The notes under the pieces were generated by a model that searched no databases, was not told where the DNA came from, and saw only the letters and a program-made list of their open reading frames with translations. The position numbers and the translations under genes were made by a program. Shown one piece after another: positions 1 through 24,517 of a DNA stretch of 64,000 nt. The stretch lies in the IMG/VR virus record IMGVR_UViG_2786546795_000004. The stretch is one strand, 5' to 3'. Each line of letters begins with the position of its first letter. Position 1 is the first letter of the stretch. The DNA is from an uncultured virus (IMG/VR IMGVR_UViG_2786546795_000004). Taxonomy: Duplodnaviria > Heunggongvirae > Uroviricota > Caudoviricetes.

Positions 1-1
1 T

Positions 2-3000
2 ACTATTAAGAGAATCATATCCCAAAGCAATATTTCCCATACCAGTAGTTAGTGAGTCAAGAGAATGAGTACCAACACCTACATTGTAGATACCACTTGT
101 TAATACTTTGAATACATCTTTTCCTATACCTACATTGTCTGTTGCTGAGTTTAGTGTTCCCGTTGGTGGGGCTGCACCATCGGGAGATATAAGAATACTG
201 TCTGTAAAATTACTAATGTTAGATATTACATCATCGAATGAGTTTATTGAACCCGAAGCACCAGCAGGTCCTGTAGGTCCTGTAGGTCCTGTACCTCCTG
301 CTGACCCTGTAGGCCCAGTTGGGCCAGTAGGACCTGTGCTTCCATCAGAACCGTCGCTTCCATCGCTACCTGCGGGACCTGTGGGTCCCGTAGGGCCTGT
401 CGGGCCTGTACCACCACTAGGTCCTGTAGGGCCGGTAGCACCTGCTGGTATAGTAAAGGCGAAAACCTTTGCCGTAGCAGGACCGGAAGAAGATACGGCT
501 ATTGGTCCTGTCGAAGCGGTAGGCGTTCCAAAGCCAGCAGCCGTTCCTGTAGGTCCGGTAGGACCTGTTGGTCCTGTGCTTCCATCCGAACCATCTGAAC
601 CGTCACTTCCGGCGGGGCCAGTTGGTCCCGTTGGTCCCGTTGGGCCAGTAGGCCCAGTCGGCCCTGTTGCCCCTGCGGGTATTGAGAAAGCGAAAACCTT
701 TGCGGTTGCTGGACCGGAGGCCGTAATTCCTATGGGTCCTGTGCTTGCAGTAGGCGTACCAAATCCGGCTGCTGTACCAGTTGGTCCTGTCGGTCCGGTA
801 GGACCAGTACCTCCGTCTGAACCATCAGAGCCAGCAGGTCCAGTTGGGCCTGTAGGTCCAGTAGGACCTGTAGGTCCTGTTGACCCGTCACTTCCGTCCG
901 ACCCCGCTGGTCCCGTAGGGCCTGTGGGTCCTGTCGGTCCAGTTGAGCCAGTAGGTCCAGCGGGGCCAGTAGGACCTGTTGCGCCCGCATCTCCTGTTCT
1001 AGCAAAGGTAATAAATACATCATCATCACCCGAAAATGGGCTTGCTGCTGATGAAGCAACATTGGCTACTGTAACTTTGAAGTAACCCGACGCATCTACT
1101 AATGAAGCGATAGTAAATAACAAGAAGTCTGATTGGTCAGATTTCTTACTAATTTTCAAATGACCCTTAATAGTAGATGTAGAGTCATCAATAGTTTGAA
1201 GGAAAGAGGATATGTCGTCGCTGTTCTTATCATCGTCGTCTATGTAGAGAATAGTAGCAGATGTTTGAGTGCTAAAGTTGTTAAATCTAAAGAAACCAGC
1301 ACCCGGCGCAGAATCGGTAGTGTGAGATGATGTATCATAGTGGAAAGTAGCCCCACCAAATGCACCATCCGGTCCTGTTGGTCCTGTAGGACCAGTCGGT
1401 CCGGTAGGCCCTGTCGGTCCTGTGCTACCACTAGGCCCACTAGGCCCTGTCGGTCCTGTTGACCCATCGCTTCCATCTGAACCATCGCTACCAGCGGGTC
1501 CACTAGGACCCGTTGGACCACTTGGGCCTGTAGGACCTGTTGCACCGGAAGGAATACTAAATGCAAAGACCTTTGCTGTGTCCGGCCCACTTGCTGTTAT
1601 ACCTATGGGTCCGGTGCTTGCTGTTGGCGTTCCAAAACCAGCCGCAGCACCTGCTGAACCATCACTACCGTCTGACCCATCTGAACCAGCAGGTCCGGTA
1701 GGACCCGTTGGTCCTGTCGCACCTGCCGGTATAGAAAAGGCAAACACTTTAGCCGTGTCGGGACCACTAGCAGTAACCCCTATTGACCCCGTACTAGCGG
1801 TAGGTGTTCCAAACCCTGCGGCGGTTCCGGTTGGTCCGGTAGGTCCTGTGCTTCCGTCTGACCCGTCTGACCCGTCTGAACCGGCAGGACCCGATGGTCC
1901 AGTCGGTCCGGTAGGTCCCGTAGGTCCGGTGGGGCCTGTCGCGCCCGCAGGAATACTAAACGCAAATACTTTAGCAGTAGCAGGACCGGATGCGGTAATA
2001 CCGATAGGTCCCGTACTTGCAGTAGGTGTGCCGAATCCAGCCGCCGCACCAGCGGGACCAGTTGAACCACCGGGGCCGGTAGGACCCGTAGGCCCTGTTC
2101 CACCGGCAGGACCAGTTGGTCCGGTTGAACCATCTGAGCCATCAGACCCGTCTGAGCCAGCAGGTCCCGACGGACCTGTAGGGCCTTGAGAGCCTGTTGG
2201 ACCCGCAGGTCCGGTAGGACCAGTAGGCCCTGTAGAACCCGTATCACCCTTATCTCCTGTGCGCGCAAATGTTACTGCTACATCTTCCCCATCGCTAAAT
2301 GGGGCAGAAGCAGAAGAATCTACGGTGCTAATAGTTATGTCGAAATATCCGCTTTCCTCTGTTAATGAGGATATGGTGTGTAGTGTGAATTGTGATGAAT
2401 CAGTTAGATTACTGATTTTAACATGACCCTTGATAGTAGAAGTAGAATCATCTATTGTGCGTAAGAAAGACTGAATATCAGTTCCATCGAGGTCGCTGTC
2501 GTCAATGTATATTCCAGTTGCCCCGCTTTGTGTTGCGTTATCTAACCTAATCTTTCCCGCGCCGGGGTCGGCTTTTGAAGTGGTTGTGGAAAAATCATAT
2601 TTGAAAGTTGCACCGCCAAAGGAACCTTGAGCGCCGGTAGGGCCAGTAGGACCCGTTGAACCACCCGGTCCTGTCGGCCCTGTCGGCCCTGTTGGGCCTG
2701 TGGGGCCGGTTGAACCATCGCTTCCATCTGAGCCGTCTGAACCTGCGGGACCGGAGGGTCCGGTAGGACCTGTCGGTCCAGCGGGACCTGTCGGTCCTGT
2801 GCCGCCGTCTGAACCATCGCTACCAGCCGGACCTGTCGGTCCTGTAGCACCAGCAGGAATCGTAAACGCGAAAACCTTAGCGGTGTCCGGTCCACTACCT
2901 GTTACTGCAATAGGTCCCGTTGAAGCAGTCGGTGTCCCAAAACCTGCCGCAGTCCCCGTAGGTCCTGTGGGTCCTGTTGAACCATCGCTACCATCCGACC

Positions 3001-4384
3001 CTGCCGGACCCGATGGTCCGGTCGGCCCTGTTGGTCCTGTCGAACCGTCAGAGCCATCTGAACCCGCTGGTCCACTAGGTCCACTAGGGCCTGTTGGACC
3101 CGTTGGTCCTGTCGGTCCCGTTGCCCCCGCAGGTATAGTAAATGCGAAGACCTTAGCAGTTGCAGGTCCGCTTGAAGAAACTGCAATTGGGCCTGTGCTT
3201 GCGGTTGGTGTACCGAATCCTGCGGCAGCACCAGTAGAGCCTGTTGGCCCACTTGGTCCTGTGGGGCCTGTAGAACCTGCCGGTCCCGTTGGACCAGTTG
3301 ACCCATCAGAGCCGTCGGAACCATCTGAACCTGCCGGCCCCTGTGACCCTGTAGGTCCATTAGGACCTGCTGGGCCTGTGGGACCTGTGGGACCAGTTGG
3401 GCCTGTCGGACCAGTAGGTCCGGCTGGGCCTGTGTCTCCAGCAGACGCTAAAAGACTCCAATAAGAAGCATTAGTTGGTAAAATAGAGCCGGAAGAAGTG
3501 TGTGCTTGAATACAAATATAAGAAGATTCGTTAGTAGTGTAGTATACAGCGTCATCTACAGCATACGCAGTAGATGTAGCCCAGTTACCTTTCCAAACTA
3601 AACCTTCGGGTCCCGTACTTCCTGCCGGACCAGTAGGTCCTGTAGGACCGGCTGAACCAGTAGGTCCCGATGGCCCAGTTGGGCCTGTAGGTCCTGCCGG
3701 ACCATCACTACCTGTAGGTCCCGATGGCCCCGTTAATCCGATAGAGCCTGTTGGTCCCGCTGGACCTGCTGGCCCCGTAGGGCCTGTGCTTCCCGTCGGT
3801 CCATTAGGGCCTGTGCTTCCTTGCGCCCCAGTATCTCCTTGTGCGCCAGCAGGACCAGTAGGACCAGTAGGACCAGTTGACCCCGTAGGCCCCGATGGGC
3901 CGGTAGGTCCAGTTGGGCCTGTAGCACCAGTTACTCCAACGGAAGAAAAGATATACCAAGTATCTGTAGCAGTTTTTTTGATAACTGCTGTGCCGTATTG
4001 TCCGACCGTAGCAGTTCCATTAATTGTTACGCCGCTACCTGCGGCGATTGTTAGTGTTCCTGCGCCTCTGTTCATAACCTTTAGTTCGGCTTTGTCTGCC
4101 GGATAAGAAATGCTACTGTTAGGAGGAACAGTAAATGTAATACTAGAACCTTTATTAGCCATTACTACTCGGCCTTCATCAGTTCTTGTGAATGTGTAAT
4201 CTGTAGTTTTTGTTACTACTGGTCTTACATCAGCAGATTGACCTGCTAGTGTTGACCCGTCTCCAAAGAAGACGAAACCGCTATCTGCGTCTTTGAATAA
4301 CTGTGCGGCGTGTGGTGTTACAGTTACCCTATCGGCTTCTGTAGTGAATATAAGATTTTTATTGTCTGTTAAAACATCCACCAT
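2..4384 (-). CDS. Giant collagen-like tail/capsid fibre protein (>1461 aa, 3' end outside window)
   Basis: Hand translation from ATG 4384 ([13 protein letters not shown]...). The same frame is open at both ends read and matches all four antisense Pro-rich ORFs. Contains long GPT/GxY triplet tracts, a [28 protein letters not shown] module, repeated globular inserts, and NVGIG/NVGVG/NIALG repeats near base 1. Absent from the ORF track because the stop lies outside the window. Confidence 0.9.
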
Positions 4385-19545: not shown

Positions 19546-19777
19546 ATTATCCTCACATTGGGCATCACACTTGAACCCTTTGTTAACTACATAACATTAA
19601 CTACATAACATTTTGATAACTACATAACATGATAACTACATAACATGAAAATCTAAAACTACATAACAAATCCAAAATCCAAAACTACATAATAATTCCA
19701 AAACTACATAATATGTGGGCTTCCCCCGCCCCATTTAGAGGCGGGAGAAGTTGCGTGTTTCCGTCTCACCTACTCGC

Positions 19778-19930
19778 TTACGCGGTGGTGATATCAATTT
19801 CATGTATATCGGCCATGCCGATTCCGTCAATGTTGCTCTCGATGAGGGTGCGTGCGCTATCCTCTATCAAGTCATCAGCATCAACTTCAACGGTCATGTG
19901 GACGACTACATCGTATGTTACTGTGGTCAT
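19778..19930 (-). CDS. Acidic microprotein (50 aa)
   Basis: MTTVTYDVVVHMTVEVDADDLIEDSARTLIESNIDGIGMADIHEIDITTA; GGAGGT SD; hairpin downstream at 19720-19750. Confidence 0.7.
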   Translation of the reverse strand: MTTVTYDVVVHMTVEVDADDLIEDSARTLIESNIDGIGMADIHEIDITTA

Positions 19931-20159
19931 GTGTGTTACCTCCAATTGCTGAGAGGAGGGGTCCCCTCTTAAGGGGTGCTATAACTACATAACATTTGTT
20001 ATGTAGTTGTGGGTTTAACTACATAACATTTCATAACTACATAACATGAAAATGGGAAAAAACTACATAACATCAAAAATCCAAAAACAAAACTACATAA
20101 CAAAATCCAAAAACTACATAAGATTTCAAAAACTACATAAGATTTTAACAACAAAGGAA

Positions 20160-20179
20160 GGGGAGGCCGAAGCCCCCCC
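20160..20179 (-). terminator. cUUCGg hairpin followed by a pyrimidine tract
   Basis: GGGGGGGCTTCGGCCTCCCC then TTCCTTTGTT on the minus strand, just after the 20192 stop. Confidence 0.7.
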
Positions 20180-20191
20180 AACTTTTTATGT

Positions 20192-20611
20192 TTATTCTTC
20201 TTCGGTGTGATTCCAGAGAACAGTCTCACCGTCTGCGTCAGTGTAGCCGATGAAGCCGTCGTCGCCCTTTACTCGTAGGTCATCGAAGTCAAACTTCATA
20301 CAGATATCTATTGAATTAGACCATGAGCCACCGTATACCGTGTATTCGTAGCGTGGCTCTCCCATCCATACTCTAGCATCCTCTATATGCCTCTCATGTT
20401 GGGTCATTATGTCCTTCAATTGTTTTAGCGTAATGCTAAGTTTGATATCTGCCCCGAACCATGAGCCATAGGTGTCTTTTACGCTCACCTTTATCTCCGG
20501 CTTGGTCATCTTCATTCTGTCGCTTGTTTCGTCGTAGTAGGCTTCGGTCATTTCTGACCGCATCCTGTCTACAAGTCGCATTAGGTTTGTAGTTCCAGTA
20601 ACTTCCTCCAT
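20192..20611 (-). CDS. Hypothetical early-region protein
   Basis: 139 aa; ATG 29 nt after GGGTTCATAAG; own terminator. Confidence 0.8.
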   Translation of the reverse strand: MEEVTGTTNLMRLVDRMRSEMTEAYYDETSDRMKMTKPEIKVSVKDTYGSWFGADIKLSITLKQLKDIMTQHERHIEDARVWMGEPRYEYTVYGGSWSNSIDICMKFDFDDLRVKGDDGFIGYTDADGETVLWNHTEEE

Positions 20612-20819
20612 GTTAGGGCCAGCGAAGCCCTGCTTATGAACCCTCGGTTAACTACATAACATTATGTAGCGGTATGGTTTTAGTGTGGTATGGAAAACTA
20701 CATAACATTATGGGGTTTCAAAAACTAAATGAAAAACTACATAACAAAAACTAAATGCAAAACTACATAAGATTGTGCCCCACCCCCCACATGACCGAGG
20801 GGGGCGAGGACTTTGGTTT

Positions 20820-20969
20820 TCAAATGTAGTCGCCACAGAAAGGACAAAAGGACCACTCGCACTCAACTGAGCCGATTGCACCTGTCTTAAGGATTTCATA
20901 GAAGTCCTCACAGTCCTCCCAATGTGGGTATATCTCTTTTAGGTCGTATGGGTCATTGTTGTCCGCCAT
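20820..20969 (-). CDS. Zn-finger microprotein (49 aa)
   Basis: MADNNDPYDLKEIYPHWEDC...WSFCPFCGDYI; ATG 28 nt after CCTTAAAAG; G6/C6 hairpin downstream. Confidence 0.7.
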   Translation of the reverse strand: MADNNDPYDLKEIYPHWEDCEDFYEILKTGAIGSVECEWSFCPFCGDYI

Positions 20970-21042
20970 GTTACTTCCAGTCGCCTCCCCCTTTTAAGGT
21001 TAACCATAACTACATAACATTATGTAGGTGTAATTTAAGGAA

Positions 21043-21297
21043 AAAAGAAAACCCCGCCACCTGCCCCTTTCCACAGGGGCTAGGCTTCGGAAGGGCTGAC
21101 TTGGATAGCCAGCGGGGGTGCTACCCCCATCCCGCCGATACGGGACTTACTTCCTACTTGGTAGAGTCAGCGTCAGACTCTCTCGGTGCTAATCCGCCCA
21201 AGCGCGGGGCCGCTCAGACACTACCCCGCTCGACCTATCAGCATTCGCAGAAGTTCAAGGTGCATTTTACAAGCGCGGGTGTGCCGCTGTTGCGACA
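21043..21297 (-). ncRNA. Candidate structured non-coding RNA (~250 nt)
   Basis: Full cassette promoter (21318-21354) with no ATG at the expected position; nested helices throughout; ends in a GC-rich stem plus TTTTCTTTTTT. Confidence 0.65.
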
Positions 21298-21378
21298 AAC
21301 TTCCGTATCGTCGTTTGTTTATGAACCCTTCTATAACTACATAACATTATGTAGTGAGTATTATTAGCATGAAAGAAA

Positions 21379-21402
21379 GGGAGGGGCCGAAGCCCCTACC
21401 CC
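21379..21402 (-). terminator. cUUCGg hairpin plus U-rich tract
   Basis: GGGGTAGGGGCTTCGGCCCCTCCC then TTTCTTTC on the minus strand, after the 21404 stop. Confidence 0.75.
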
Positions 21403-21403
21403 C

Positions 21404-21697
21404 TCAGTAGAAGTCCGGCTCGTAGCATCTCTCGGCGGCTATCTCTCGCTGTGAGTCATACCATCGCTCGGCGGCTCGCTCGGCTCTCTCCTCTCCCATA
21501 TCGCAGTCATAACCCGCATAGGGTTCTTCTTCTGCTTTCTGTTGTGCGCGTAGGAAGGCGGCTGCTTTAGCCATCTTCTGTATCTCGCTGCGCGCGAGGG
21601 CTTTCTGTTCGTCTGTTCCATTCTCAAGCCATTCGCAGAACATAGGTGCTATGTCCTCCCATGATGGCTCTATATCAATGTAGGTTGTTTCCTCCAT
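21404..21697 (-). CDS. Hypothetical protein (paralogue of 23243..23431)
   Basis: Start MEETTYIDIEPSW at 21697, 29 nt after GGGTTCATATA. The longer start in the ORF track only translates the repeat. Confidence 0.8.
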   Translation of the reverse strand: MEETTYIDIEPSWEDIAPMFCEWLENGTDEQKALARSEIQKMAKAAAFLRAQQKAEEEPYAGYDCDMGEERAERAAERWYDSQREIAAERCYEPDFY

Positions 21698-21859
21698 GAG
21701 CCTACGAGGTAGGGGGGGTATATGAACCCTACTATAACTACATAACATTATGTAGAACCAACCGCGTCGTCAACACATATGCAACTACATAACATCATAA
21801 CTACATAACATTTTTAGCGAAAAAGAAAGAGGGAACTACATAACGTAGCCCCGTGAAAC

Positions 21860-21976
21860 TTACTCCTCCTCGTTTTTCTTTGCTTCGGCTTCCGCGTCTA
21901 TTCTCGCCCAGTATGCTTTCCACATGGGACTTTCAAACCCATTATTATCAAACATTCTGCGTCCGTTCTTAGTCAT
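21860..21976 (-). CDS. Microprotein (38 aa or slightly longer)
   Basis: MTKNGRRMFDNNGFESPMWKAYWARIDAEAEAKKNEEE; a GGAGGTGG SD lies before an in-frame ATA 7 codons upstream. Confidence 0.55.
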   Translation of the reverse strand: MTKNGRRMFDNNGFESPMWKAYWARIDAEAEAKKNEEE

Positions 21977-22016
21977 ATATTGTTTCTTCCTTCCTATCTT
22001 ACCACCTCCTTATTTT

Positions 22017-22427
22017 TCATCCGTAGTAGACTGTAGGGAAGCCGTAAGTATCACAGCCCTTGAGCCACTTCTCTAGTTCCTCTGTGAACTCTACATCGCA
22101 TATCTTCTCTACGTCGTGCGTGAAGAACTTGGTTGTATAGTGTGCATTACCTACGGGTTCTCTTGGTGTGTTGTCTGTGCCTTCTCGTACCCAGTCCATG
22201 CGACCATCTTGACTTATGAAATGGAATGATGGTGGGATGCTAATGGCTCTATCTTCGTCGGCGTGGAAGGTGTATGCGTACTCCTCGTACCCGTCTCTGA
22301 TGTTGGTAGGTGCGGGAGGCATGAACGGCTCACCCCACTGTGGGTCCCTACCCATCATCTGAGCCATGTATAGGCCATATTTTTTCATCGTCATTGTTCT
22401 TATATTCTCTCCTAGCAGTTCTTGCAT
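22017..22427 (-). CDS. Hypothetical early-region protein
   Basis: 136 aa; ATG 29 nt after GGGTTCATATA. Confidence 0.75.
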   Translation of the reverse strand: MQELLGENIRTMTMKKYGLYMAQMMGRDPQWGEPFMPPAPTNIRDGYEEYAYTFHADEDRAISIPPSFHFISQDGRMDWVREGTDNTPREPVGNAHYTTKFFTHDVEKICDVEFTEELEKWLKGCDTYGFPTVYYG

Positions 22428-22667
22428 GGACTGCCGTATAGCCGCTAGTATATGAACCCTACGGTATCAATGTTATGTAGTTTTCCCTACGGCATCAATG
22501 TTATGTAGTTTTGTGGTTGTGGTTAGGGGGGGCGTTGTAACTACATAACATTATGTAGTAAGGGTGAGAGGCTAAAAACTAAAAACTACATAACAAAAGT
22601 GAGTTCAAAACTACATAACACCGAAGGGCTTACGCGGGAAACCCGCCGCCTTCGGAGGTTATAAGTC

Positions 22668-22928
22668 TTACTCGGTCAAATACTCGCCGGACTTTACTTT
22701 TACCCTTACATCATTTATGCTGTCCTCGTTCAAGAACTGCAAGAGATAACGGTTAGTCGTCGCGCTGTAGAAGTCCCAATAGGGACTAAACAGGGTTACG
22801 GTTCCGTCATTGGCTTTCGTTGCTATTTTGCTTCTATACGATTGAAAGGTTCTGCCCTCATCAGTCCATATTATGAACTGATTGGCTGCATATCCTCCGC
22901 TCGCGGTTCTCATGTTTTCTACGCTCAT
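22668..22928 (-). CDS. Phage-type hypothetical protein
   Basis: Start MSVENM at 22928; NQFII....FQSY.S.IA....W..S.TT.RY..FL pattern resembling small phage early proteins; hairpin at 22621-22655 downstream. Confidence 0.8.
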   Translation of the reverse strand: MSVENMRTASGGYAANQFIIWTDEGRTFQSYRSKIATKANDGTVTLFSPYWDFYSATTNRYLLQFLNEDSINDVRVKVKSGEYLTE

Positions 22929-23078
22929 GTAACCCAACCGAAACACCCCGCCTTTATGAACCTGCCGATAACTACATAACATTACTGTCTATAACTACAT
23001 AACATTATGTAGTAATAATAATACAAAAAATAAAGGCAAAATTAAAATCCAAAACGAGAATGCAAAAACTACATAACC

Positions 23079-23246
23079 TTAGTAAATTGTGGGGTAGTAT
23101 TTTGAAAACACTTCATAGATAGCATCGTTTTCCGCTTCTTGTTCGGGGTCATTCAGACCGTAGTCCTCTCTATTTTCTTTAAGAAGCCTCGCCTTAACTT
23201 TTAAGATTTCATCTATGTGCTTGTTGTATCTGTCTATCTCCTTCAT
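23079..23246 (-). CDS. Microprotein (55 aa)
   Basis: MKEIDRYNKHIDEILKVKARLLKENREDYGL...YYPTIY; ATGA overlap with the upstream gene. Confidence 0.65.
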   Translation of the reverse strand: MKEIDRYNKHIDEILKVKARLLKENREDYGLNDPEQEAENDAIYEVFSKYYPTIY

Positions 23247-23431
23247 GTGTTTGCCTCGTTAAACTTTTCCATATCCCACTTGCCCGCATCACCATTGTAT
23301 GCGTCAAGGGCGCGAGCCATACGCATGATTTCTGTGATAGCCATATCTCTCGCTCGCTCACAATAGTTATCTAACAGCATATCTATGTATGCTGGGGTCA
23401 TATCAGTCCATGTTGGTGTTACATCCGTCAT
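23243..23431 (-). CDS. Hypothetical protein (paralogue of 21404..21697)
   Basis: Start MTDVTPTW at 23431, 28 nt after CCCTTAAGTA. Confidence 0.75.
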   Translation of the reverse strand: MTDVTPTWTDMTPAYIDMLLDNYCERARDMAITEIMRMARALDAYNGDAGKWDMEKFNEANT

Positions 23432-23836
23432 AACCCTCCGTATGACCCTCACTACTTAAGGGTATTGATAACTACATAACATTATGTAGTTGTGGGCTGC
23501 GCGGTTTTTTTTACAAAAACTACATAACATTTTTGGTTTCAAAAACTACATAACATTTCGGTGCAAAAACAACACTGAGTGTTGTGAATTACACTTAGTG
23601 GTAAAAAGGCAGCAGGTGTGTGTGCTGCACTTAGTATCTGAGGCAAAACCGAAAACTACATAATATATCCAAAATCCAAAGGTTTAAGTAGTTAGTATTT
23701 CTCGCCCTATGGTTTTTGTGTTGTCGCGCACTAGAAAAGAACTACATAACTCGATATCGAAACTACATAACGATAACTACATAACTAATAGTAGTTATAG
23801 CATAGTATAAATACTAGAACTTTCTCGGCTTGAATA

Positions 23837-24517
23837 ATGAGTACCGAGCCGACACCGGAATTGCTTGAGAGAATAGCACAAAAGAAAGCCGATATGGAGA
23901 CAGCCCGTAGGGGTATGAAGGAGGGTATCAAATACTCCTCAAGGTCGCTCGGTGGGCACACTACACAGTATCGCAAACTATGCCGCCTCGCAGGTATCAT
24001 CGTGAGGACAGGCAAGGCCGACTTGACTGAGGCGAGAAAAGCCATCTCCTACACCATAGGCAAGCCCTGCCGTTACAAGGCGTGCAAGGGACGCAACCAC
24101 AAAGCACACGGAGAGAAGTGCCCTGTGGCCTCAGCAAGAGGTAAGACAGGAGGTAAGAATGGCGAGGGTGAGAGCAAGCAACGCTTGGGAAGCACGAATG
24201 GAAACTTCAAAGCCGTTAGACCATGTGGCTGTCCTATGAGAGCGCATAAGCCTACCTGCGAACACGCTAGGTTGACGGCTCGTAAGGACTTCGGGCTGTC
24301 CCTCAGAAAAAATGTCCGCGAGAAAATCAATGTCCGAAAAATTGAGTGGGCAAGTCAAGCCCTCACAGTAGCAGCGGTTACGCAATACCTAAGAGGCGTG
24401 GATGGTATATGTCCATCCTGTAATAAAACACTCCCAGCCGTCACGGCTTCCAAAGTCCACAAGGACGACATAATGAGTAATCCTGTAAGGGTTATTTGTA
24501 AAGGATGCGACCAATGA
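23837..24517 (+). CDS. Basic multi-Cys/His (Zn-binding) protein, probable nucleic-acid binder
   Basis: CRYKAC...H....KC, CGCP..H..TC, CPSC...CKGC; very Arg/Lys-rich; first gene diverging from the repeat array; TATAAATA 31 nt upstream. Confidence 0.75.
   Translation: MSTEPTPELLERIAQKKADMETARRGMKEGIKYSSRSLGGHTTQYRKLCRLAGIIVRTGKADLTEARKAISYTIGKPCRYKACKGRNHKAHGEKCPVASARGKTGGKNGEGESKQRLGSTNGNFKAVRPCGCPMRAHKPTCEHARLTARKDFGLSLRKNVREKINVRKIEWASQALTVAAVTQYLRGVDGICPSCNKTLPAVTASKVHKDDIMSNPVRVICKGCDQ

Follow-up and report, generated by a model that had tools for sequence, protein, structure and literature searches.

The pRNA of phage phi29 is a stand-alone viral RNA of 170–250 nt, composed of two domains and made from a strong promoter among the early genes. 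Its fold is kept among relatives while the sequence drifts, and intermolecular loop–loop pairing builds a ring of the RNA on the portal. Orphan RNAs of marine viruses have also been described, among them manA (RF01745) and wcaG (RF01761) (Weinberg et al. 2010, PMC2864571); on the account given there, manA mostly occupies the 5′ UTRs of metabolic genes. The magroviruses are portrayed as having a replication block with a family B polymerase, a clamp loader and a chaperonin, together with halovirus-like head–tail morphogenesis genes (PMC5434244). Here we analyse a 64,000-nt stretch of DNA, called the window, from an uncultured virus (IMG/VR IMGVR_UViG_2786546795_000004). We are confident, though short of certain, that positions 21296–21041 on its minus strand encode, as a gene in its own right, a structured non-coding RNA of ~254 nt, a member of a family unlisted in Rfam that is carried by ~64–78 kb marine tailed viruses resembling magroviruses. 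A sequence-only reading had put a structured non-coding RNA into a cassette slot at this place, and the proposal held up: there is covariation in eight distinct homologues, no ORF is conserved on either strand, and contigs from RNA libraries map to the interval.

Transcription of the RNA would be driven by the box-plus-TATA promoter that is common to the neighbouring small protein genes. On the minus strand, the palindromic upstream box CTACATAATGTTATGTAG (21337–21354) is an exact match to the box of the sister cassettes; from 20652 to 23489 this strand has seven exact copies, where chance would give 0.09. Downstream of it lies the TATA-like octamer TTCATAAA (21325–21318), immediately preceded by AGGG, which is a possible BRE. 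An ATG stands 21–24 nt past the octamer in the sister cassettes, whereas the RNA cassette has GTC at that place, which bears out the earlier claim of a cassette promoter without an ATG. We place the start of transcription at 21296, a G after a T, because its distance from the octamer is the same as that of the A of the sister-cassette ATG; the transcript would begin at G21296, where the neighbouring genes have a leaderless ATG. The spacer, 21 nt from the TATA-like box to the start (21297–21317), contains the inverted repeat CAAAC...GTTTG and most likely lies outside the transcript. At the other end, the RNA would stop at the oligo-U tract UUUUCUUUUUU (21041–21051, minus strand), the presumptive terminator, which directly follows the 3′ strand of helix P1, and T-rich tails lie 3′ of all seven full-length members of the family. 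For viruses of this kind, the succession of box, TATA-like octamer and start 21 nt further on (the ATG in protein genes) offers a rule for calling starts. A pairing of the spacer loop CGGARG with the 3′ strand of helix P2 was considered and rejected, since P2 of the homologue L011 reads GUGAG/CUCAC yet its spacer is still CGGAGG.

The minus-strand transcript folds with −114.5 kcal/mol, a modest z-score in the window of −2.77 that none of 200 shuffles equalled, whilst the plus strand does no better than shuffles (z −1.10), in agreement with the structured minus-strand RNA proposed earlier. The homologue L001 folds alone no better than shuffles (z −0.85), so the case for structure rests on covariation and not on folding energy. 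In alignment A6, 96.2% of 234 cells are paired, compared with 49.8–57.3% when the partners are slid, and both-sided changes occur in 14 of 33 pairs, a number reached in none of 500 shuffles; the earlier alignment A4 gives the same picture, and both figures are to be read knowing that alignments A4–A6 were fitted to the structure of the model and lean towards it. These model-based alignments were used instead of all-type MAFFT alignments (A1, A2), which were too poor for structure work. RNAalifold independently predicts the same helices, and the complete architecture emerges from single-sequence folds of L033a, L033b and L001; the window's own sequence, folded at minimum energy, gives P1 an alternative partner. 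Many of the compensations amount to few events, mostly the split between type A and type B, because the eight distinct sequences come from closely related viruses.

The RNA consists of two separately folding domains, a 5′ rod-like hairpin and a 3′ nested junction (all coordinates are on the minus strand). The 5′ domain (21209–21296) is an exchangeable module, an 88-nt rod closed by P0 (21292–21296 with 21209–21213), for which the variants GUCGC/GCGGC, GUAGCA/UGCUAC and GUCUGCA/UGCAGAC are found. When this domain is folded alone, its first base pairs with its last in 7/7 sequences, and P0 begins at nt 1, as counted from the start at 21296, in 6/7 homologues. Across relatives the 5′ domain ranges from 58 to 94 nt and the conserved 3′ domain from 140 to 170 nt. 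In the 3′ domain, P1 (CCCGC at 21204–21208 with GCGGG at 21053–21057, kept in 7/7 with U–G and G–U variants) closes a four-way junction of P1, H1, P2 and H5. H1 (21157–21202) is a hairpin of variable length that contains a small three-way junction in the window, and its basal stem covaries (CUUGG/CCAAG, UUGCC/GGCAA, CCUGA/UCAGG, CCUG/CAGG, UCUG/CAGA); all seven sequences have canonical pairs in P0, in P1 and at the base of H1. P2 (21150–21154 with 21089–21093; whole element 21089–21154) is 100% paired, with three of its five pairs compensated (GGAAG/CUUCC, GUGAG/CUCAC, GGAGG/CCUCC), and its arm bears a second four-way junction in which it encloses the hairpins H2 (21130–21145, 90.6% paired across eight sequences), H3 (21114–21128) and H4 (21095–21113), the latter two 100% paired. 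H5 (21059–21085), a hairpin with a bulge, has compensation in four of six pairs and in two further basal pairs. Its loop (21068–21075) is complementary to the H4 loop (21101–21107), and to judge from this complementarity the two loops probably kiss within the molecule. The UGAUGA in the H5 loop was tried as a C/D box and set aside: type A members lack the motif, and pairing with the H4 loop accounts for it better.

The helices that had been drawn by eye can be compared with this architecture. The closing stem and the hairpins UCCCG/CGGGA, GGGGG/CCCCC and GCCCCU/AGGGGC are kept with compensating changes in the homologues, as is GGAAG/CUUCC, although the latter forms the nested helix P2 and not the pseudoknot that had been envisaged. 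The long 5′ helix GGCAC.../...GUGUC recurs in the minimum-energy fold of the 5′ domain, where the three carrier sequences are almost identical and so uninformative, and AGAGUC/GACUCU is present in the window type and in L033b but absent outside these. Two pairings had to be given up: GCUUGGG/UCCAAGU, which pairs 7/7 in the window, reaches only 3/7, 5/7 and 4/7 in the three homologues compared, and UUAGC/GCUGG conflicts with the covarying hairpin H4.

The eight distinct sequences were found in related marine virus contigs, seven of them full-length and one cut by a contig end. Two RNAs stand in tandem in L033 (1030–1187 and 1385–1548), each with its own promoter. The covariance models R1 and R2 recognise members in the window and related virus contigs only, with 16 matches in 62 sources, 12 in 58 and one more in L068; the polymerase of the most distant complete relative is 80% identical. 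Exact and degenerate RNA patterns in IMG/VR matched only the L001 contig and later L068, and a type A sequence pattern gave no match there. Among 185,579 prokaryote genomes, scanned with a GGARG-type P2 pattern only, 13 loci fitted and none was recognised by R1 (best E 0.51), that is, no host or provirus copy was seen. A blastn search of 3 kb against GenBank phages gave no match, and the nearest record, G001, is a 38-kb fragment without the RNA region. Complementarity between the RNA and the rest of the window does not go beyond chance (best E 0.31). Identities of the 5′ and 3′ domains are 99 and 69% between the window and L011, 95 and 76% between L033b and L068, and 52 and 83% between L001 and L049; 5′ identity is uncoupled from 3′ identity, and the 5′ domain is a module that relatives swap.

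Expression data were available as contigs from four runs of one study (sea-water RNA libraries), which cannot prove start, end, strand or level. The contigs jointly cover 21053–21296 (X2, 21053–21230; X4, 21188–21296), although DNA carry-over is possible. The ends anticipated from the sequence, near 21297 and 21043, agree with a 5′ end at 21296 and with 21053 as the last covered base before the U tract; beyond 21053 the X2 contig continues with 12 stray letters. No contig covers 20935–21052 in any of the four runs and X1 has no contig of the RNA, holes that prove nothing.

One record of X4 (record 7, 139 nt, ‘goes back 109’) is a closed head-to-tail segment of 109 nt (21188–21296, minus strand). 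Its word depth is 1753.6, ~190x the 9.25 of the neighbouring gene's contig, and X4 contains no contig over the remainder of the RNA; this is one contig from one run. Such a record would be expected if the RNA were a precursor whose working product is the 5′ module, set free by a cut 3′ of C21188 in the H1 loop and possibly closed into a circle, through either self-cleavage or the action of host enzymes, with the 3′ domain serving processing or stability. The near-identity of 5′ modules whose 3′ domains have diverged (99% versus 69%) is what one would predict if the 5′ sequence matters, and circular non-coding RNAs are common in archaea, as far as the two studies report (PMC3326292, PMC9014305). 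However, the two ends of an abundant fragment could be joined by ligation or template switching while the library is made, the cut ignores P1 and H1, both of them covarying helices, none of the Rfam ribozyme families matches, and by eye there is no bulge–helix–bulge motif at 21296/21188. The 5′ end of the cycle also falls on the presumed start, where one would expect a triphosphate, on which ligases act poorly. We consider the precursor explanation unlikely and keep to the full-length RNA of two domains as the gene product.

The identity of the host bears on where this RNA begins. The virus encodes a family B polymerase, an RFC-like clamp loader, a Hef/XPF-like nuclease, GroEL, a portal, a large terminase and a tail tube, and the best named matches of the polymerase are to haloarchaeal (Halorubrum) tailed viruses at 24% identity. 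Its gene content agrees with the magroviruses in the features that their published description sets out (PMC5434244), and because of this resemblance the host is probably a marine archaeon. The 319 polymerase relatives lie on contigs of up to 78.5 kb, none of them named as a magrovirus, and a full-text literature search returned no paper mentioning magroviruses together with ‘non-coding’. The promoter geometry fits archaeal TATA promoters and leaderless mRNAs. With a bacterial host, TTCATAAA would instead serve as a −10 element, and transcription would begin ~14 nt further upstream, so that the RNA would include the CAAAC...GUUUG hairpin. The GroEL is of the bacterial type, the spacer CAAAC(N13)GTTTG is kept in 6/8 members, including L068, whose box differs, and a contig of depth 2.8 (X3, 21313–21467) crosses the promoter. 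Against this, the octamer class stands 21 nt ahead of an ATG in 16 of 96 distinct GTTC[AT]TA contexts, the sharpest spacing peak, most of the 16 without a Shine–Dalgarno motif, and RNA contigs terminate at 21296 and, for the neighbouring gene, at 21697, the A of its ATG. In addition, P0 begins with the first nucleotide of the shorter RNA, the spacer motif GCGACACGGAGG is also found in one protein-coding cassette of L049, the spacer loop is unchanged despite the altered P2 of L011, and the replication genes are of archaeal/eukaryotic type. A bacterial host, with the longer transcript that it implies, is thus quite improbable, and we retain the archaeal reading with its start at 21296.

It is also conceivable that the element acts in cis, as a riboswitch or attenuator in which P1 and the U tract form a conditional terminator for read-through into the downstream cassette. 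The U tract directly abuts the 3′ strand of P1, the compact junction fold is aptamer-like, and the duplicated CCCGCG/GCGGGG segments of type A permit alternative pairings, which the minimum-energy fold of the window uses. However, this alternative pairing is missing in type B members, a complete promoter box (21010–21027) follows 14 nt beyond the U tract, the tandem RNAs of L033 have separate promoters, and the downstream genes vary among relatives. Moreover, poly-U is sufficient for archaeal termination and a hairpin is not needed, at least in the account cited here (PMC7289017). Regulation in cis is very unlikely on these grounds, and a stand-alone gene accounts better for the arrangement.

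Searches for known RNAs agree with the earlier remark that the RNA resembles neither tRNA, SRP RNA, RNase P RNA nor the hammerhead. Rfam 15 gave nothing at gathering score, and for the interval 20900–21450 of the window and the homologue loci L011, L033, L049 and L001 no family reached E ≤ 10, which applies to the SRP RNA and RNase P families, the self-cleaving ribozymes (hammerhead, twister, HDV-like and others), manA and wcaG; the Phage_pRNA and tRNA/tmRNA models likewise gave no match, and ARAGORN found 0 tRNA/tmRNA genes in the whole window. The models might have missed a known class (RNase P RNA, SRP RNA, tRNA-like, manA-type or phi29-type packaging RNA) in highly diverged form: P2 with its three hairpins has a cloverleaf or cruciform outline, and the segment GGAAGUAAGUCCCG is reminiscent of the first conserved region of RNase P RNA. 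Conserved region I of RNase P RNA builds the long-range helix P4, whereas the viral segment folds back locally into H2. With RF00373, the archaeal RNase P model, 11 of 14 control genomes give a match and the complete relative G002 gives none, and we regard a hidden known class as highly unlikely.

Finally, it is hardly credible that the interval codes for protein, either through the plus-strand ORF 20924–21367 (147 aa, GTG start), which is antisense to the RNA and open over the whole interval in the window, with one antisense frame also open in L011, L033a and L001 and third-position changes mildly over-represented relative to type B members (15–19 of 33–42), or through a short sense-strand peptide, since all three antisense frames are closed by stops in L049 and the best one in L033b, two promoter boxes lie within the ORF, which also overlaps the convergent gene 20820–20969 and matches no PHROG family, close pairs show no clear codon-position bias (3/5/7 and 5/6/6), the changes are paired across helices, and every sense frame contains 4–7 stops.

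As to what such an RNA does, our tentative guess is an abundant scaffold or decoy that binds protein in trans. Binding would then take place on the conserved 3′ domain, and the swappable 5′ rod would be a module for specificity or stability. The strong promoter shared across the array, the compact covarying fold, the tandem paralogues and the swapped modules make the RNA a candidate tool for host takeover or counter-defence. A bolder version, which we regard as a long shot, is a modular RNA whose 3′ domain recruits a host or viral protein while the 5′ rod sets specificity and is released as an abundant, covalently circular RNA of 109 nt; if true, marine archaeal viruses would gain their first described circular RNA product, and with it a novel means of reprogramming or disarming the host. 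The ocean is rich in viruses of marine group II archaea, and both they and their hosts are uncultured. An RNA of ~250 nt is a concrete object that can be synthesised, probed for its structure and used as bait for partner proteins.

Set beside the described systems, the viral RNA shares nested multi-way junctions with RNase P RNA but differs in that its 5′ and 3′ ends are not paired together. The head-to-tail 109-nt species and its high depth recall the circular and stable non-coding RNAs of archaea, on the evidence presented for these (Danan et al. 2012, PMC3326292; the Rnl ligase study, PMC9014305), although by eye the viral RNA has neither C/D boxes nor a bulge–helix–bulge motif, and the cycle, as a single contig, may be a library artefact. 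With manA and wcaG, as they are presented in the source (PMC2864571), it has in common an almost exclusive occurrence in marine metagenomes and viruses, covarying multi-stem folds and no assigned function. In contrast to these RNAs, which have a cyanophage context, it belongs to a probable archaeal virus, and whereas manA usually occupies a 5′ UTR, the viral RNA comes with a promoter and terminator of its own and may occur as a tandem pair. The virus has an ordinary large terminase, so that, unlike in phi29, a bridging RNA is not obviously needed. The likeness to the phi29 pRNA is that of a virus-encoded, stand-alone RNA of two domains, made from a strong promoter, whose fold is kept while its sequence drifts.

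The minus-strand element is separately transcribed and terminated, conserved and compactly folded, and it is present in sea-water RNA. Its interval opens with an 18-base palindromic box, CTACATAATGTTATGTAG (21354-21337, minus strand), and 12 bases past the palindrome comes a TATA-like octamer, TTCATAAA (21325-21318, minus strand), with AGGG directly before it; the sequence-only reading had proposed this promoter, and both parts are found as claimed. Where chance predicts 0.09 copies of the box, the minus strand has seven exact ones from 20652 to 23489. Sister cassettes carry the ATG of a small gene 21 nt after the octamer (at the 21738, 20652 and 22541 boxes), or up to 24 nt after it in others; the RNA cassette has G21296 followed by UC at this place, which bears out the claim of a missing ATG. 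An oligo-U tract, UUUUCUUUUUU (21051-21041, minus strand), ends the interval, and the next promoter box (21027-21010, minus strand) begins 14 bases past it.

Open stretches in the sense-strand frames do not exceed 37 codons. On the plus strand, an ORF at 20924-21367 (147 aa, GTG start) is open in the window, and we rejected it as a protein gene: in the related contig L049 stop codons close every one of the three antisense frames, and the ORF crosses two promoter boxes, overlaps the convergent gene 20820-20969 and has no PHROG match. Substitutions relative to the window at its codon positions 1/2/3 number 3/5/7 in homologue L033a and 5/6/6 in L011, and against members of the second subtype, type B, 15-19 of 33-42 fall in third positions, which is only a mild excess.

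We surveyed the distance from octamer to next ATG in 96 distinct GTTC[AT]TA contexts from the window and related loci (excluding L002 and the unrelated genome loci from L069 onward), many of which are chance matches within genes. The distances peak sharply at 21 nt (16 cases), with 10 more between 22 and 25 nt; the majority of the 26 ATGs start ORFs of 39-139 codons or more. Most cassette-gene ATGs at this spacing have no Shine-Dalgarno motif; a minority of cassette contexts show 31-40 nt, with AAGGAG ahead of the ATG. Such spacing without a Shine-Dalgarno motif implies leaderless mRNAs and archaeal-type promoters. An archaeal TATA box usually lies near -26, and an AT-rich octamer ∼22 nt upstream of the transcription start is consistent with one, as T-then-G at 21297/21296 is with an initiator T(A/G). 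Two independent hints agree on this start: in the RNA library, the contig of the upstream gene stops at 21697, the A of its own ATG, and that of the RNA element stops at 21296. The 21-nt spacer between octamer and start holds CAAAC...GTTTG, and the same GCGACACGGAGG is found in the spacer of a protein-coding cassette of L049. Given the octamer-to-ATG spacing and the two contig ends, therefore, the spacer is most likely promoter DNA and not RNA; a bacterial promoter, with which the RNA would start ∼14 nt further upstream, is an unlikely alternative. In some archaea most mRNAs are leaderless (72% in Haloferax, according to the figures in PMC4983044), and the poly-U tract matches archaeal termination as outlined in PMC7289017.

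The window also carries genes for a large terminase, portal, tail tube and tape-measure protein, and for a family B DNA polymerase, RFC-like clamp loader, Hef/XPF-like nuclease, PD-(D/E)XK nuclease and a GroEL-type chaperonin. There is no close cultured phage, terminase identity being at most ∼26%, and the best full-length named polymerase matches are to haloarchaeal tailed viruses, at 24% identity. The same gene combination is described in outline for the magroviruses of marine group II archaea (Philosof et al., PMC5434244), with which the window shares, on that outline, a bacterial-type GroEL within the replication block and halovirus-like morphogenesis genes. Among the 319 relatives that the polymerase has at E ≤ 1e-30, whose contigs reach 78.5 kb, none is named a magrovirus, and the only NCBI name seen was ‘Prokaryotic dsDNA virus sp.’. 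We therefore call the virus magrovirus-like and, from its genes, regard an archaeal host as only probable. Elsewhere in the window, the G+C content of 1-4000 is 0.53-0.56 against 0.39-0.49 in the rest, and the ORF 2700-3464 has a weak collagen-repeat match slightly under the Pfam cut-off. Transcription diverges at 23500-23850, with minus-strand cassettes on the left and plus-strand replication genes on the right, and the cumulative GC skew has its minimum near 24000; this makes 23500-23850 a candidate replication origin or control region.

A neighbouring protein led to the related contig L001, which holds a diverged copy of the RNA element, and a box scan of metagenome contigs gave 57 loci, with at least two boxes on 16 contigs. 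We built a first covariance model, R1, for the 3′ domain from the window, L011 and L033a with our own structure; in 62 sources it gave 16 matches and nothing beyond them. A degenerate-pattern search of IMG/VR added one member, L068, which sits in a 68.5-kb genome (G002; 99% complete). This genome shares 80% identity with the window in its polymerase and 85% in its terminase. A search of 58 sources with a second model, R2, brought no new members. Eight distinct sequences result: the window type, L011, L051 (cut off at its contig end), L033a, L033b, L001, L049 and L068. L065 is the window type bar one base in the 5′ domain, and L033a and L033b lie in tandem in one virus, a pair also present in L013.

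The promoters of these cassettes show a further pattern. On the minus strand of 19587-23800, each small cassette has CTACATAATGTTATGTAG 12 nt upstream of a TATA-like octamer, and the gaps between cassettes hold many single half-sites, GTTATGTAGTT, up to ∼10 in a row (for example 20020-20150). The promoter palindrome of G002 differs from that of the window: it is CTACAAATTAATTTGTAG (L068 640-720), with matching half-site arrays, which suggests a virus-specific regulator co-evolving with its site.

The RNA is without a match among known catalytic and housekeeping RNAs. Rfam gave no match at gathering scores over the whole window, no relevant match at E ≤ 10 over 20900-21450, as the earlier claim of novelty had it, and no consistent match in the four homologue loci scanned; ARAGORN found no tRNA or tmRNA in the window, and membership of all tested RNA families failed. 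A second, longer ORF-less cassette occurs in relatives (L001 3470-3800; also L011, L021, L026, L045 and L051). It is ∼300-400 nt long, starts GUGUAAGUGGGGGGCGAAC and has a promoter of the same type. The window lacks it, neither R1 nor R2 matches it, and it has no Rfam match in L001 or L011; it is probably another non-coding RNA family.

The minus strand folds at -114.5 kcal/mol (z -2.77, with 0/200 shuffles as good) and the plus strand at z -1.10, in line with the strand originally proposed. The 3′ domain is closed by P1 (CCCGC/GCGGG), whose 3′ strand leads into the U tract; inside it lie the hairpin H1, of very variable length, P2, which encloses the hairpins H2, H3 and H4, and H5. In the alignment of all eight sequences, which was fitted to the model, standard pairs occupy 96.2% of 234 cells; sliding the partners by 1-3 columns lowers this to 49.8-57.3%. 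Both sides change in 14 of the 33 pairs, the homologues being few and related and most double changes tracing to the split into two subtypes. Observed pairing, compensation and covariation score were each unreached in 500 shuffles, and a seven-sequence alignment, likewise fitted to the model, gave the same pairing and covariation result. Covariation is clearest in P2 (GGAAG/CUUCC, GUGAG/CUCAC, GGAGG/CCUCC), and the base of H1 also covaries (CUUGG/CCAAG, UUGCC/GGCAA, CCUGA/UCAGG, CCUG/CAGG, UCUG/CAGA). Free prediction with RNAalifold on the eight-sequence alignment returned the same helices plus four basal H5 pairs (GCCU/AGGU vs GCGC/GCGU), leaving junction linkers of only 0-3 nt. As an alignment-free check, we folded sequences singly to minimum energy: L033a, L033b and L001 showed the complete architecture, the window and L011 most of it, and L049 and L068 failed to recover it.

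Of what the sequence-only reading drew by eye, four hairpins and the closing stem hold. Three other pairings are wrong or lack support: its GCUUGGG/UCCAAGU helix makes 7/7 pairs in the window and 3/7, 5/7 and 4/7 in the three homologues tested, its UUAGC/GCUGG helix clashes with H4, and its GGAAG/CUUCC ‘pseudoknot’ becomes a nested helix once H1 closes locally. In type A, CCCGCGCUUG is duplicated at 21199-21208 and 21270-21279, and GCGGGG at 21053-21058 and 21222-21227, so two mutually exclusive pairing schemes are possible; the minimum-energy fold of the window takes the alternative one, and type B has no such arrangement. The loops of H4 and H5 are complementary, and from one subtype to the other a change in either loop goes with a change in its partner: the window has UCCA/UGGA, L033a has UUUCCA/UGGAAA, each of the four type B members has UCAUC/GAUGA, and L011 retains only 3 bp. 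Shuffling the loops gave matches as good as those of type B and L033a in 37-120 of 5000 trials, and as good as that of the window in 917 of 5000; a kissing-loop contact between H4 and H5 is, on this complementarity, likely but not established.

The 5′ domain behaves as a separate module. Its closing helix, P0, pairs the first 5-7 nucleotides with the segment directly before P1 (GUCGC/GCGGC, GUCGC/GCGAC, GUAGCA/UGCUAC, GUCUGCA/UGCAGAC), beginning at nucleotide 1 in 6/7 sequences and at nucleotide 3 in L049. Folded alone, all seven 5′ domains (58-94 nt) give a long irregular hairpin with the first base paired to the last. Identities in the 5′ and 3′ domains are 99% vs 69% for window and L011, 95% vs 76% for L033b and L068, and 52% vs 83% for L001 and L049; judged by these comparisons, the sequence of one domain is uncoupled from that of the other. 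A single kind of 3′ scaffold is combined with five or more different 5′ modules, so recombination has taken place at the P0/P1 boundary. The nested-junction 3′ domain with its exchangeable 5′ rod might serve as a protein-binding scaffold or decoy. We hold this reading tentatively, because a tight nested-junction domain, few conserved single-stranded bases and a fused, exchangeable rod are what would be expected of one.

Four metatranscriptome runs of one study (at most three samples) contain 23-35% of the sampled words of 20600-21800. In their contigs the upstream gene is represented at 21400-21697 (word depth 9-24) and the downstream gene in part, at 20711-20934 (3.6). The element itself is covered by contigs at 21053-21230 (run X2, depth 20.5) and 21188-21296 (run X4, depth 1753.6), which jointly span the predicted RNA almost exactly; the approximate ends first proposed, with an RNA contig ending at 21296 and contigs reaching 21053, were right. 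No contig in the four runs bridges the RNA into the downstream cassette, and a low-depth X3 contig (21313-21467, 2.8) crosses the promoter. The X2 contig runs past 21053 with 12 letters unlike the window, a difference perhaps due to strain variation or to a chimera. The X4 record, from one run, is 139 nt long, with a joint reported as ‘goes back 109’. Since 139 = 109 + 30, we infer that the assembler printed out a closed cycle of 31-letter words, in which 21188 is joined to 21296. Such a record would point to an abundant species of 109 nt whose ends are discrete, and which is either a circle in the cell or a product of joining in library preparation. As the contigs do not settle start, end, strand or level, we treat it as a lead. 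Circular species are common for archaeal non-coding RNAs in the data outlined in PMC3326292 and PMC9014305, and it is conceivable, if unlikely, that a processed or circular 5′ product is the active species. The remaining functional readings we rate lower still.

We also infer that the RNA is not a leader, because a new promoter comes after its own terminator, because copies of it lie in tandem, and because the genes downstream of it vary between relatives. No complementary target was found within the window. In the literature, no full text contained both ‘magrovirus’ and ‘non-coding’, and the supplements of magrovirus papers may list intergenic features. We rate the element as a virus-borne orphan structured RNA, a kind already known: it comes closest to manA and wcaG, orphan structured RNAs of marine viruses, and the phi29 packaging RNA is comparable by analogy only.
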